From Escherichia phage S127 BCL3, in sequence record OQ626344: a stretch of DNA of 64,000 bases. The stretch is one strand, 5' to 3'. Position numbers and translations under genes: made by a program. Within the stretch, counting starts at the first letter, position 1; the number at the start of each line of letters is the position of its first letter. Shown one piece after another: positions 10,388 to 15,058 of the stretch. The notes beneath the pieces are model-generated. The model saw only the letters and a list, made by a program, of their open reading frames with translations. It was not told where the DNA came from and searched no databases.

Positions 10388-10432
10388 TTTACTTTATTGA
10401 TGGCCCTGGAGTCAAGGCCATCTAAAAATAAA
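10388..10432. repeat. 45-bp conserved intergenic element, copy 1
   Basis: Exact TTTACTTTATTGATGGCCCTGGAGTCAAGGCCATCTAAAAATAAA; dyad GATGGCC/GGCCATC. Confidence 0.8.
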
Positions 10433-10434
10433 TT

Positions 10435-10635
10435 TTACAGGCCTACAATCTCTTTAATTCGTTTTACTGCTGCCTCAGCGCCTTGAGGGTAAAAATTATG
10501 GTAACCAATCACGCGGGTAATACTGATCGCCACTTGATGATCTTCATAATCGCCTTTGAAGATTTCTTGACCGTCAATCAACACGGCAATTTTTTCTTCT
10601 TTTTTGAAGTTAATAACGCGGATATTGTTGCTCAT
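10435..10635 (-). CDS. hypothetical protein
   Basis: 66-aa ORF; AAAAGGAG SD. Confidence 0.55.
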   Translation of the reverse strand: MSNNIRVINFKKEEKIAVLIDGQEIFKGDYEDHQVAISITRVIGYHNFYPQGAEAAVKRIKEIVGL

Positions 10636-10724
10636 TTTGTTTCTCCTTTTGGAACTTTGTCTATGTGGTGAGGAGTGTCTCCCCGTTGATTGTTATTATC
10701 CATATTCTGGATCTGATTGCAACA

Positions 10725-10772
10725 CCCAGGGAGAAAAAAATTAAAAAGTTAGGCCCCCAGGGATCGGGGGCC
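10725..10772 (-). terminator. rho-independent terminator
   Basis: Hairpin GGCCCCC-N7-GGGGGCC followed on minus strand by U-rich tract. Confidence 0.5.
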
Positions 10773-10916
10773 GTTATCAGTTACTTACAGCGATAAAATA
10801 CATCCCTACGCCTAACAATATTTCAAGGGCGATGATCTCAAGCCATACCGTAACACGGCGCACCTTATCGGTGCGGGGCTTATCCTTGGGTGTCATCGTC
10901 TCCCCCTTTCCTCCTG

Positions 10917-11138
10917 TTAGCAGTTACGTGGTTTGCAATGGTCCCCAGGAGTATTATCACCACGCACATTACAAGAAAAATTATCTCTGTCGTTGTTCGA
11001 TCCATTGTTATAAAATTCCTTAAGATCAGGCCTGAAAATAAAGCTTTCGTTATTGAATCCATCCCGCCAGGCGGCTGGCTTCAAATCTTCACTAAATGGA
11101 TTAATTAACGTGGTATTATTTAAACGGCTGGCCCACAT
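10917..11138 (-). CDS. hypothetical Asn-rich protein
   Basis: Start moved to Met7 of track ORF (track start is TTG); GAGAGGA SD. Confidence 0.35.
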   Translation of the reverse strand: MWASRLNNTTLINPFSEDLKPAAWRDGFNNESFIFRPDLKEFYNNGSNNDRDNFSCNVRGDNTPGDHCKPRNC

Positions 11139-11487
11139 ATTTTCTATTCCTCTCAAATAAGCGATCCGCCTCAGTTAAACAAATCTCATGGGCGTGATCT
11201 CTGGTTTTAGCTTCATCGAAAACCTGTTGTGCAAGGCTGCAACGTAGGGAGACTGGAAGATCACTATAATAGGCGTTGACAAACGTTTGAGCGTCGTACA
11301 GGTCTGAAAATACTTTACCCTTTCTATTATTCCCCTTGTCAACAATTGCAAGGATAACCAATACAATAGTTGCAACCACTCCCAGGAAGATAGATATAAT
11401 AAACCATAAAAAGGCGGATCTACCCATCTTGCCAGCGATCCAGGCGTTAAACAAGGCAACTAATATAGCCAAAATAATAAATTCCAT
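11116..11487 (-). CDS. membrane protein (two predicted TM helices)
   Basis: Start moved to Met47 of track ORF; AAAGAGG SD; hydrophobic segments. Confidence 0.5.
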   Translation of the reverse strand: MEFIILAILVALFNAWIAGKMGRSAFLWFIISIFLGVVATIVLVILAIVDKGNNRKGKVFSDLYDAQTFVNAYYSDLPVSLRCSLAQQVFDEAKTRDHAHEICLTEADRLFERNRKYVGQPFK

Positions 11488-11554
11488 TCTATGTACCTCT
11501 TTTACAGTTCTGATTAACAATAAGGCGGCAAATATGCCGCCGCCTGTTACCTGA

Positions 11555-11935
11555 TTAAAAATTATCGCCGTAAATCTTTCCGCTTTCTGCCCACACCACC
11601 ACGCGGGGCATACTATCCCACACATCTTGTTTTAGATTGAGCGCGTGCAATTCTTCGGTGGTGCTCATACCAGGCACGGGCTGATTGTATACTGCAAAAC
11701 GACCACCTGCATAATCATAGGCCAGAGTTAAATCACACTGGATCATCTTTTTGATCATGGCGTTAAGCATAGCGTTAGCCGCATATTGGTCACGTTTTAA
11801 AGGCAATTCTTTAATAAGTTTGCGATAGTTTTCGATATGGTCGCACACTGTTTCACGTGGAAGATCTTTCATATCTTCACGGAATGTAACCAGGTTAAAC
11901 ATAACGGTGTCAATAGCCTTGGTGGTGTTTTTCAT
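11555..11935 (-). CDS. hypothetical protein
   Basis: Start moved to Met13 of track ORF; CAAAGAGGAAAAC SD. Confidence 0.5.
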   Translation of the reverse strand: MKNTTKAIDTVMFNLVTFREDMKDLPRETVCDHIENYRKLIKELPLKRDQYAANAMLNAMIKKMIQCDLTLAYDYAGGRFAVYNQPVPGMSTTEELHALNLKQDVWDSMPRVVVWAESGKIYGDNF

Positions 11936-12025
11936 GATGTTTTCCTCTTTGTTTTGTGTGGGGCAAGTCATCTCGCCCCCTTGATTTTTAATATAGCAGG
12001 TTTTTAGATTATTGCAACACTTTTC

Positions 12026-12649
12026 TTATGAAAAACTCATCTCACCATATTCATCTACATCAAACCGCCAGTCGTTGGCCTGGATGAGGTCGATCAAGGT
12101 CTCGACTGCAAATTGTTCGTCGTAGGCATTCTCCAGATCTACGTAAACCTTGCGAGAAATTTCTCTGACCGTCTCAGTGATCAACTCTTCCAGCTCTTCA
12201 ACCTTGCTTTCTTGCTTGGCGGTCAGATTCAGCCAAGTAGTATCAATGTATCCGCTTACAGTGTTTTCGTGACTATGGCGGCTATATGGATCACGCTCAA
12301 CACTTGCAGATAGCTCGCCATCGTGCATTGTGCCGAACAAGTGACGAATTGAGCGGAATTTAGTCAGAGATTTGACTTTACGCAAGAATTTTTCTAAATC
12401 AACGTTTTCAGCACTGATTGACGCGCCGTCACCCTGGCACCAAAAGCCGGACCAATGTACTTCGGTATCTTCAAGGCCATACTCTGGAAAAACATATTCT
12501 TTATAGTATTCAATCACGCTTTCTGCAAAAAAGTTATCCCCGCTGTGTTCTTCTCTTTCGCGGACCATTTCAACGGCTTTTTCTTTTTGTTCGTCGGTCA
12601 GCACGTCGAAAGATAAGTTGTAACCTGTGGTAATGTTAACGGTGGTCAT
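12026..12649 (-). CDS. hypothetical protein
   Basis: 207-aa ORF; CAGGAG SD; driven by promoter/hairpin unit P1. Confidence 0.6.
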   Translation of the reverse strand: MTTVNITTGYNLSFDVLTDEQKEKAVEMVREREEHSGDNFFAESVIEYYKEYVFPEYGLEDTEVHWSGFWCQGDGASISAENVDLEKFLRKVKSLTKFRSIRHLFGTMHDGELSASVERDPYSRHSHENTVSGYIDTTWLNLTAKQESKVEELEELITETVREISRKVYVDLENAYDEQFAVETLIDLIQANDWRFDVDEYGEMSFS

Positions 12650-12677
12650 GATATTTTCTCCTGTTTTCTTTATTAGT

Positions 12678-13689: not shown

Positions 13690-14032
13690 AGCTTCCCCCT
13701 TTACTGATTTCAATATTTGCCTGAATCGCCCGGATACGGCGTTTTATAACCTCCTGATCCGTGCAATCATACCCCCAAAAGTCTACAATTTTTGCGCCTC
13801 CAGCTTTTAAGCGGTATAGTGTTTCTTGCATCTTGTAAGCTGGGATCGGTCGTGGTGTTACCTGGTCGCCTTTCTCATCCTTGTACTTGATAATATAATC
13901 TTCATTGTCGTTGAATACCCAAAATGGGTATTCTGTAAAGGCGTTGCTCTCTTTTTCGTTTTTGGATTGGATCTTGTTTACAATTAAAGCCGTAGCAATA
14001 GCGCCAATGATAAAACTTGCACCGCTGATCAT
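13679..14032 (-). CDS. membrane-anchored protein (N-terminal TM helix)
   Basis: Start moved to Met7 of track ORF; AAAGGAG SD; hydrophobic N-terminus. Confidence 0.5.
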   Translation of the reverse strand: MISGASFIIGAIATALIVNKIQSKNEKESNAFTEYPFWVFNDNEDYIIKYKDEKGDQVTPRPIPAYKMQETLYRLKAGGAKIVDFWGYDCTDQEVIKRRIRAIQANIEISKGGSYEN

Positions 14033-14107
14033 GTTACTTTCTCCTTTCATGGTGTTAATAAATTATCTTTATAGATGGCCCTGCAGCCAGGACCACCGAA
14101 AAAATAA

Positions 14108-14353
14108 CTATTTCACAATGCCTACAAAACAGATCCCGCCTTCCCCGACGTAGGCAATATCGGTCACTTTGTAGTCGGTCAAGATCTGTTTATTCAGATC
14201 ATTAATAAAATCGGTCATTGCGTTGGTGTAGTTGTCTTCCATGTCTAGGGAATAATCCCAGGTGTAAACCTTTTTACGTCCGAAGCCTTTTACCATGATC
14301 CGGGCGCTTTTGGTGTTGGTAGGGGCATAGTATTTGGTGATTAGTGCTGCCAT
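14108..14353 (-). CDS. hypothetical protein
   Basis: 81-aa ORF; GAGGAG SD. Confidence 0.55.
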   Translation of the reverse strand: MAALITKYYAPTNTKSARIMVKGFGRKKVYTWDYSLDMEDNYTNAMTDFINDLNKQILTDYKVTDIAYVGEGGICFVGIVK

Positions 14354-14393
14354 GGTTTTAACTCCTCATTAGTTCAGTGTTAACAGTGTAAAG

Positions 14394-14438
14394 TTTACTT
14401 TATTGATGGCCCTGGAGTCAAGGCCATCTAAAAATAAA
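14394..14438. repeat. 45-bp conserved intergenic element, copy 2
   Basis: Identical to copies at 10388 and 15014. Confidence 0.8.
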
Positions 14439-14439
14439 T

Positions 14440-14781
14440 TTACTCGTTTTCTTCCAGTTCTGCAAGCTCTTCTTTCACTTCTTCGAGCTCTGTCTGCAAT
14501 TCCTGGTATTCTTCATCGTCCTCAATATCCAGGCTGTCGATGTAGTCGCTAAATCCGCAACGGTAAGCGATAGGATCTAGCTCCTTGAGGATACGCGACG
14601 GAAGAAAAGAAATGTTTCCGATCATGATTTCGCCGTAGACCTCGTCTAACCATTCATCATAGTTTTCGTCGTACTTGTCCTCGTCGATTTCAAAGTTATC
14701 GATCTTGTTCTCAAGGTCCGCGATCTGTTTTTTCAGTGCGGCAACCTGAATAGCTTTTTCTGCGGCGGTCATAGTGGTCAT
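14440..14781 (-). CDS. acidic coiled-coil protein
   Basis: 113-aa ORF; AAAAGGAG SD; driven by unit P2. Confidence 0.55.
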   Translation of the reverse strand: MTTMTAAEKAIQVAALKKQIADLENKIDNFEIDEDKYDENYDEWLDEVYGEIMIGNISFLPSRILKELDPIAYRCGFSDYIDSLDIEDDEEYQELQTELEEVKEELAELEENE

Positions 14782-14806
14782 GGTGTTTTCTCCTTTTGTG
14801 TGTTCT

Positions 14807-14860
14807 GGGAAGTTTTCCCGTTTACGTGTTTAAGTATACCGATTTAAGTTAGCTTGTCAA
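14807..14860 (-). promoter_or_regulatory. sigma70-like promoter plus 5-prime UTR hairpin (unit P2)
   Basis: Minus strand TTGACA - 16 nt - TATACT, then hairpin GGGAA-AACTT-TTCCC. Confidence 0.55.
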
Positions 14861-14980
14861 TTAAAAATTTAAGAAAAATTTTGCAAAACTGTTAGCGCTA
14901 CTCATTAACATTTGCGCCAGGATGTAACCGACAACGCAAACGATAATAGTTACCTTTGTGTATTGGCGTGTAGTGCTCAT
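14861..14980 (-). CDS. small hydrophobic protein (39 aa), below track cutoff
   Basis: AAAAAGGGG SD then ATG; sits between element copy 3 and unit P2. Confidence 0.35.
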   Translation of the reverse strand: MSTTRQYTKVTIIVCVVGYILAQMLMSSANSFAKFFLNF

Positions 14981-15013
14981 CTTAAAGCCCCTTTTTCGCT
15001 TAACTGAGATTAG

Positions 15014-15058
15014 TTTACTTTATTGATGGCCCTGGAGTCAAGGCCATCTAAAAATAAA
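15014..15058. repeat. 45-bp conserved intergenic element, copy 3
   Basis: Identical core; starts right after stop of gene 15060..15464. Confidence 0.8.

Follow-up and report, generated by a model that had tools for sequence, protein, structure and literature searches.

What is the function of a 45-bp sequence that recurs without a single change behind the stop codons of small phage genes? The sequence in question, TTTACTTTATTGATGGCCCTGGAGTCAAGGCCATCTAAAAATAAA, lies in a 64,000-nucleotide stretch of Escherichia phage S127 BCL3 (sequence record OQ626344; hereinafter the window, with plus-strand positions counted from its first letter). This phage is a Vequintavirus, i.e., an rV5-like E. coli myophage, and the region concerned is 92–96% identical to that of more than 100 GenBank phages. 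The block carrying the element comprises the leftward small early genes, corresponding to open reading frames (ORFs) 164–238 of rV5 (rV5 record; PMC3606486). Public annotation of the element is conflicting: the record of phage Murica (KT001917) labels precisely these 45 bp 'terminator' at one site along with a diverged copy (copies A and D below), the record of phage Gotham annotates the TTGACT-N18-TAAAyT stretch inside it as a promoter based on a PhagePromoter prediction, and the rV5 and EdH4 records have no annotation at this point. Here we present evidence that the element probably, though by no means securely, functions in early polycistronic transcripts as a T7-type RNase III processing site combined with a hairpin that stabilizes the 3′ end.

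An exact search across the whole window recovers the three copies (A, B and C; Table 1) that the original prediction had reported as identical at 10388, 14394 and 15014. No other matches are found in the window at up to three mismatches, and 100 dinucleotide-preserving shuffles return none. The proximity to upstream minus-strand stops noted in that prediction also holds, with the stop codons at 10435–10437, 14440–14442 and 15060–15062 being 1–2 nt away from the respective copies. A fourth, diverged paralogue with 11 mismatches (copy D), revealed by a repeat search and overlooked in the original prediction, abuts the TAG stop codon at 14108–14110 with no gap. All four copies are situated 0–2 nt past the stop codons and 33–40 nt ahead of the next ATG of minus-strand genes, and a covariance model of the element family matches these four alone in the 64-kb window.

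As minus-strand RNA the whole 45-mer forms a single extended hairpin. Its 8-bp lower stem pairs U1–U8 with A38–A45, including a U5·G41 wobble, and its 10-bp upper stem pairs G11–G20 with C25–C34, including U18·G27, and is capped by an ACUC tetraloop. The two stems are separated by an internal loop with U9A10 opposite A35A36U37, which is preserved in all four copies as 2 nt (UA or UC) by 3 nt (AAU or UAU). The flanks supply 2–5 extra pairs at each site, reaching into the stop codon, for a total helix of 20–23 bp. The GATGGCC/GGCCATC stem and its 10-nt loop with TTGACT, from which the original prediction proceeded, are indeed present on the minus strand but understate the structure, as the dyad spans the entire element. 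The predicted minus-strand folding energies are −23.6 kcal/mol (z −5.9) for copy A, −24.3 (z −6.4) for copy B, −25.0 (z −6.6) for copy C and −22.4 (z −5.3) for copy D. The plus-strand RNA folds far more weakly (−8.1 kcal/mol, z −1.3, in the case of copy D), and the DNA folds are weak. A search of Rfam at a permissive threshold yielded nothing meaningful, with all matches falling far below the gathering scores.

The conservation of the hairpin was examined in 25 distinct copies from 11 sources, namely the window, nine related phage genomes and one IMG/VR contig. Across these 98.4% of the cells pair, as against 35–56% when the partner is slid by 1–3 columns. In four pairs both partners have changed (U-A to A-U, A-U to U-A, U-A to C-G, and A-U/G-C at the flank), while a U·G pair in the lower stem is invariant in 25 of the 25 copies. 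Relative to copies A, B and C, the upper stem of copy D displays three one-sided changes (A-U to G·U, C-G to U·G and U·G to C-G), each of which preserves pairing only as sense-strand RNA. Across 13 genomes, a single column out of 80 is variable in the upper stem (G-C to G·U), compared to 6 of 64 in the lower stem, 2 of 20 in the internal loop, 8 of 16 in the tetraloop, and 20–23% in the flanking coding sequence. Given the pairing, the covariation and the distribution of variable columns, the helix is under selection, or homogenized, as a sense-strand RNA structure. Loop variants recur at different sites in different genomes (ACAC at A, B and C; ACUU at A and B), pointing to sequence exchange between the copies; hence, a part of their perfect identity is a consequence of concerted evolution. 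The earlier contention that perfect conservation implies selection is in this sense half right, as the copies also exchange sequence and recombine.

To compare the element with the RNase III sites of the T7 early region, we used two covariance models: one built from the Vequintavirus copies (the element model) and the other solely from the five T7 early sites (the T7 model), which we take to lie at coordinates 890, 1468, 3138, 5887 and 6448. These positions fit the places before genes 0.3, 0.5, 1, 1.1 and 1.3, and the GCAA loop of R1.1 agrees with the published site (PMC1540722), which offers indirect support for them. In a search of 128 kb, the top four matches of the T7 model are the four copies, all recovered at full length on the minus strand with 23–28 bits and E-values of 0.0007–0.012 (A, 25.6 bits, E 0.003; B, 23.2 bits; C, 28.3 bits, E 0.0007; D, 24.1 bits), with the next match having an E-value of 0.4. 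This model also matches the element copies in rV5 and MiataMamis, and returned no match in 728 kb of unrelated viral loci sharing the core palindrome. In the reverse direction, where the result is weaker, the best three matches of the element model in the T7 early region are R0.3, R1 and R1.1.

The resemblance extends to structural details. When folded here, the T7 sites R0.3, R0.5, R1, R1.1 and R1.3 display the same topology as the element, with a lower stem, a short 5′ bulge, a 9–10-bp upper stem, a 4–5-nt loop, and a 3-nt UAU or AAU on the 3′ side of the internal loop. The single-sequence fold of R1 has the same 2/3 internal-loop topology, with AAU. Further, the element bears U·G and U-A pairs under the closing pair, as do R0.3, R1 and R1.1; UA/UG constitutes the canonical distal box (PMC1540722), for which we infer the register on the element. 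Substrates of E. coli RNase III are typically two helical turns long, and internal loops confine the cut to one strand, so that a hairpin remains to protect the 3′ end (PMC1540722). In T7, cuts at five such sites divide the early RNA synthesized by host polymerase into mRNAs of one or two cistrons (PMC4858673). The 20–23-bp helix of the element likewise amounts to about two turns, all four copies possess a helix-splitting internal loop like that of substrates cut on one strand, and each is placed between cistrons on the sense strand of a putative polycistronic early transcript.

We posit that the element operates as follows. Consensus σ70 promoters are found upstream of the copies in the leftward early block; host RNA polymerase would initiate at these and read several small genes. 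Past each of the four stop codons, the transcript is predicted to fold into a helix of about 20–23 bp, with an A/U lower stem, a G/C upper stem and a tetraloop. Host RNase III would then bind this two-turn helix and make a single cut on the 3′ side of the internal loop, which, by analogy with T7, is predicted to fall after U37, i.e., between 10396 and 10395, 14071 and 14070, 14402 and 14401, and 15022 and 15021. Such a cut would leave the upper hairpin as the protective 3′ end of the upstream message and free the downstream cistron as a separate mRNA. From the fold, its conservation, its restriction to the sense strand and the two-way similarity to T7 sites documented here, we infer the cleavage itself.

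Several points weigh against this proposal. The matches of the element model in T7 are individually not significant (E 0.75–6), the E-values of the T7 model are rough, and its four matches amount to about two independent sequences because the copies are paralogues. The pair adjoining the internal loop is G-C and might be a catalytic antideterminant: a G-C or C-G at the proximal-box position beside the scissile bond can permit binding yet suppress cutting (PMC1540722). The 2/3-nt internal loop is also smaller than the 4/5-nt one in the RNAalifold consensus of the five T7 sites. Literature searches found no cleavage or transcript-end data for Vequintavirus, and a stable hairpin could stabilize or attenuate transcripts without RNase III. 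Among the three options originally offered, namely a regulator-binding site, an RNA processing or stability signal, and an atypical promoter, the second is favored by the conservation as sense-strand RNA and the architecture shared with the T7 sites, and a DNA-binding regulator is disfavored by the G·U pairs of copy D.

A further parallel with T7 concerns the gene between copies B and D. Its homologue (35% identity, E 2e-12) in the T7-like Klebsiella phage phi1_146030 (PP889480) lies in the early region, at 2100–2500, and has immediately before it a T7-type RNase III hairpin that scores 40 bits with the T7 model. The same pairing of gene and hairpin is thereby seen in two unrelated phage groups, hinting at their joint movement between unrelated phages. 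The element model detects no related hairpin in the early region of this Klebsiella phage or in that of Salmonella phage SSBI34.

The 45-mer is found in about 120 Vequintavirus records of GenBank, in line with the suggestion of the original prediction to look for it in related phages, and each record has about three near-exact places; the apparent 1–4 copies per record obtained with megablast are an effect of single-base loop variants. In 13 sources, comprising the window and 12 related phage genomes or contigs, the four sites occupy the same gene junctions. The 5,426 complete E. coli genomes searched contain no copy. As a sequence family the element is confined to the genus Vequintavirus. A mobile element was considered and rejected, because its sites are the same in every genome examined and host copies are lacking. 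In Gotham (MT682716), copy C (9497–9541) is missing 5 nt (GGGCC) of the 3′ arm; this would abolish both the hairpin and the 18-nt spacer, and reflects either a sequencing error or the natural inactivation of this copy. Scans of IMG/VR with the bare palindrome GATGGCC-N10-GGCCATC retrieved at least 120 unrelated contigs, all chance matches, which doubled as the negative control for the T7 model; leaving the stems free with the loop and flanks fixed retrieved one contig, and a protein-guided search two loci. As IMG/VR added little, the GenBank phage collection was used instead.

The proteins encoded by the genes flanking the copies (Table 1) all belong to PHROGs of unknown function, and no Pfam families were found among them.

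Table 1. Copies of the 45-bp element and associated features in the window (plus-strand coordinates).
Feature	Position	Strand	Description
Copy A	10388–10432	−	Exact; helix 10385–10435, including the last A of the upstream stop codon
Copy B	14394–14438	−	Exact; helix 14388–14443
Copy C	15014–15058	−	Exact; helix 15012–15060
Copy D	14063–14107	−	11 mismatches; CTGGC replaces TTGAC; helix 14061–14109, starting inside the TAG stop
Gene upstream of copy A	10435–10635	−	66 aa, PHROG 12347; stop 2 nt from element
Gene downstream of copy A	10045–10350	−	101 aa, PHROG 7366; ATG 37 nt past element
Gene between copies B and D	14108–14353	−	81 aa, PHROG 3199
Gene downstream of copy D	13679–14050	−	123 aa, PHROG 12734
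Gene upstream of copy C	15060–15464	−	134 aa, PHROG 13245; stop 1 nt from element
620-bp segment B–C	14439–15058	−	ORF 14440–14781, consensus promoter 14833–14860, ORF 14861–14980, one repeat copy
σ70-like hexamers in copy A	10386–10415	−	TTGACT, 18-nt spacer, TAAATT; 9/12 consensus; −10 extends 2 nt past the 45-mer
σ70-like hexamers in copies B and C	14392–14421, 15012–15041	−	Same layout, TAAACT

Could the hairpin act without RNase III? We see an unlikely, if workable, alternative in a generic intercistronic hairpin comparable to the repetitive extragenic palindromic (REP) sequences, which would either block 3′-to-5′ exonucleases after other cleavages or, lying so close to the stop codon, hinder terminating ribosomes and thereby tune the upstream gene. 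It can claim the same structural evidence as the RNase III proposal, and most descriptive features of REPs are seen in the element, which is extragenic, presumably transcribed, palindromic, short, highly similar between copies and multi-copy (PMC12306157). Moreover, REPs near stop codons are reported to stall ribosomes (PMC12306157), and the G/C upper stem of the element starts 10–12 nt past the stop codon. However, this alternative leaves unexplained the specific match to the T7 geometry, i.e., the 10-bp upper stem, the U·G/U-A pairs, the AAU/UAU loop and the lower stem. It also does not account for the T7 model picking these four among all the hairpins of the window, with the terminator hairpins of the window scoring nothing. 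The absence of copies from the E. coli genomes further implies that the element is not a host REP.

At the DNA level, the copies are substrates for homologous recombination because three of them are near-identical direct repeats. Phages ECP32, ECP26, magaca, phiWec189 and ime are without the 620 bp between copies B and C, and bear in its place a single chimeric copy that combines the downstream flank of B with the upstream flank of C. As this is the product expected of homologous exchange between direct repeats, the deletion is attributable to recombination between the repeats. Flank comparison distinguishes at least three deletion lineages, each closest to an undeleted phage: ime and magaca to EdH4, ECP26 and ECP32 to the window phage, and phiWec189 to rV5 or Gotham. 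Thus, the deletion is recurrent, and it marks ORF192 and ORF193 as dispensable.

Additional observations were made along the way. Compared with ECP26 and ECP32, the window shows 2–18 mismatches per 100 nt left of copy B (13328–14451) and 0–1 per 100 nt over most of the stretch right of copy C (15012–16400); relatedness to these phages switches across the element, as would be expected if genomes also crossed over at this point. In GenBank, 17 'Campylobacter phage' records flagged UNVERIFIED (MG0656xx, including MG065644) are Vequintavirus sequences. Among them, the record of 'Campylobacter phage A147' starts inside a chimeric B/C junction and its end holds the intact B–C arrangement; we set this junction aside as evidence for a mixed population, as it is a probable assembly artefact at the 45-bp repeat. 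The window has a 283-bp cassette at 13045–13327 (ORF 13048–13287, 79 aa) that EdH4, isim, Gotham, Murica, rV5, ECP26, ECP32 and magaca lack. Two σ70-like promoters sharing TTGACAT (first hexamers at 13333 and 13044) form its borders, and a single chimeric promoter occupies the junction in Murica. After the B–C deletion, this is the second instance in the block of a cassette gained or lost by way of repeats or promoters. The segment 9692–10052 with an ORF at 9677–10027 (116 aa), absent from rV5 and Gotham, is another cassette-type difference. Finally, 16935–17115, in a stretch without long ORFs, contains direct repeats with a 65–74-nt period whose units include GAAAACGAAAAACAGATCGAGTACT.

The B–C deletions also fit a cassette of the promoter early stem-loop (PeSL) type, a rather doubtful explanation under which the element would be mainly an early σ70 promoter for the downstream gene, made up of a T-rich UP-like tract, TTGACT and TAAAyT, with a stem-loop attenuating read-through. 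PeSLs include a subclass with the stem-loop over the −35 element, have AT-rich upstream tracts, occur before ORFans and mediate indels (PMC2839356, PMC4122927). Likewise, the element has an AT-rich tract (TTTATTTTTA) upstream of a −35 located in the top of the hairpin, its repeats stand before ORFans in a hyperplastic region with several cassette indels among relatives, and recombination between its copies deletes the flanked genes. The hexamers are sensibly placed 33–40 nt upstream of the next ATG with its Shine-Dalgarno sequence, the site is predicted by PhagePromoter in Gotham, and other promoters of the block also bear stem-loops. The loop bases A and C of TTGAC are invariant in copies A, B and C, with the other two loop bases varying in five of the six columns, and at the position of a C-G pair in copy D these copies retain a weaker U·G, whose U corresponds to the first T of TTGAC. 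However, the argument from invariance is weak (about p 0.1), because the loop variants represent only around three mutational events.

The strength of the hexamers speaks against the promoter as the principal function. With a 9/12 match and an 18-nt spacer they belong to a class of which a scan recovers 62 sites in 18 kb as compared to 42 expected by chance, while the true promoters of the block match at 11–12 of the 12 positions and those of PeSLs are said to equal the consensus. None of the three sites is marked in the stringent promoter annotation of the rV5 GenBank record (search in PMC3606486). Furthermore, the hairpin has been retained in copy D despite the loss of the −35, which argues that the hairpin is selected independently of a promoter. 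TTGACT-N18-TAAAyT in the element may still have promoter activity, a possible but unproven role; were it real, its transcripts would begin just past the hairpin and exclude it.

Stem-loops are associated with other early promoters too. A second repeat family at 12681–12734, 14807–14860 and 15484–15540 has a near-consensus promoter (TTGACA-N16 followed by TATAAT, TATACT or TAAACT) and then a hairpin in the 5′ untranslated region, GGCGGGAAnnnTTCCCGCC. Elsewhere in the window, stem-loops are found around the −35 of the promoter at 6628 and around the −10 of those at 13044, 19255 and 23914. In Salmonella phage SSBI34 (MZ520832; Vequintavirinae), GTTGAC-N17-TATAAT promoters between about 4085 and 11387 lie within long hairpins with the −10 in the loop. 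Their stems differ yet stay complementary (ATGCCGC/GCGGCAT, ATGACCG/CGGTCAT and ATGTGGGG/CCCCACAT), and neither the element model nor the T7 model matches these hairpins.

That the dyad is used as DNA, either as an operator for a dimeric phage or host protein or as a cruciform, centered on the −35 region, strikes us as most improbable, even though it is perfect and unchanged throughout more than 100 genomes. The arms of copy D are asymmetric as DNA (GGTGGTCC versus GGGCCATC) and pair only via G·U on the sense RNA; these become A·C mismatches on the other strand, which is why a DNA-binding regulator is disfavored. The plus-strand and DNA folds are poor, the lower-stem U·G is invariant throughout the 25 copies, and the compensatory changes in the A/U lower stem are needless for a half-site model. 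The half-sites themselves lie 17 bp apart from center to center, a spacing unusual for a simple dimer. Similarly far-fetched is an intrinsic (Rho-independent) terminator, as labeled in Murica for copies A and D: there is a stable G/C-rich hairpin right after the stop codons, but neither strand has a 3′ U-tract (3′ of the hairpin, the minus strand reads AAUAAAGUAAA and the plus strand UAAAAAUAAA), a scan lists canonical terminators elsewhere (e.g., 13483–13464 and 10772–10752) and not the element, and the terminator annotations of rV5 and EdH4 omit it. The original prediction had recognized that the U/A tracts are on the wrong side, and the stem is indeed flanked by U-rich sequence 5′ and A-rich sequence 3′ on both strands, leaving no terminator tail in either direction.

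We also entertain, as a speculative and on present evidence unlikely scenario, a triple reading of the same 45 bp, in which an RNase III cut-and-cap signal in RNA, a σ70 promoter in DNA and a recombination joint for cassettes are superimposed. In such a combination, and with equal reservation, the UP-like T-tract and the −10-proximal A-tract might double as the two strands of the lower stem. If true, a 'punctuation cassette' of this kind would make the T7 RNase III sites and the T4 PeSLs two forms of a single general device by which early genes evolve as modules. The analysis of the element resolves the conflicting labels of 'terminator' in Murica, 'promoter' in Gotham and nothing in rV5. RNase III processing, if confirmed, would mean that rV5-like phages, in wide use against E. 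coli O157, punctuate the early transcripts made by the host polymerase as T7 does, though the two are unrelated. The recombination joint, for its part, helps interpret gene-content differences and assembly errors in Vequintavirus genomes.

How, then, does the element compare with known systems? Bidirectional intrinsic terminators likewise have a G/C hairpin whose stem can be extended by complementary A- and U-tracts, but the polarity is reversed in the element, with the U-tract 5′ and the A-tract 3′. REPs, like the element, are extragenic, transcribed, palindromic, multi-copy and often near stop codons. E. coli REPs measure 14–40 nt, making the element slightly longer, and they reportedly play a part in mRNA stability and in the stalling of ribosomes at stop codons (PMC12306157). 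In contrast to REPs, the element has just four copies, resides in a phage, and combines a length of 45 nt with an internal loop. To our knowledge, no RAYT-type transposase is associated with it. The PeSLs of T4-like phages resemble the element in genomic setting: each is a short intergenic repeat, conserved and located among small ORFans in a hyperplastic block, both comprise an AT-rich tract, σ70-like hexamers and a stem-loop able to overlap the −35, and recombination between copies of either removes or swaps intervening genes. Nonetheless, the 9/12 hexamers of the element contrast with the consensus promoters of PeSLs, its long, internally looped sense-RNA helix with their poly-G/poly-C terminator-like stem, and the phage families differ.

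With respect to the T7 sites, the element shows little primary sequence identity, its lower stem is nearly pure A/U and starts at the stop codon, its internal loop is smaller, and it is carried by an unrelated myovirus without a T7-type polymerase. Its copies, three of them identical, are far more alike than the T7 sites, and cleavage at them is a prediction only. What the two share is that hairpins recur between the cistrons of an early gene block transcribed by the host RNA polymerase, and that in both a helix of about two turns is split by a small asymmetric internal loop. In each case a 9–10-bp upper stem carries a 4–5-nt loop with U·G and U-A just under the closing pair, and the 3′ side of the internal loop is AAU or UAU, the very place where the T7 sites are cut.

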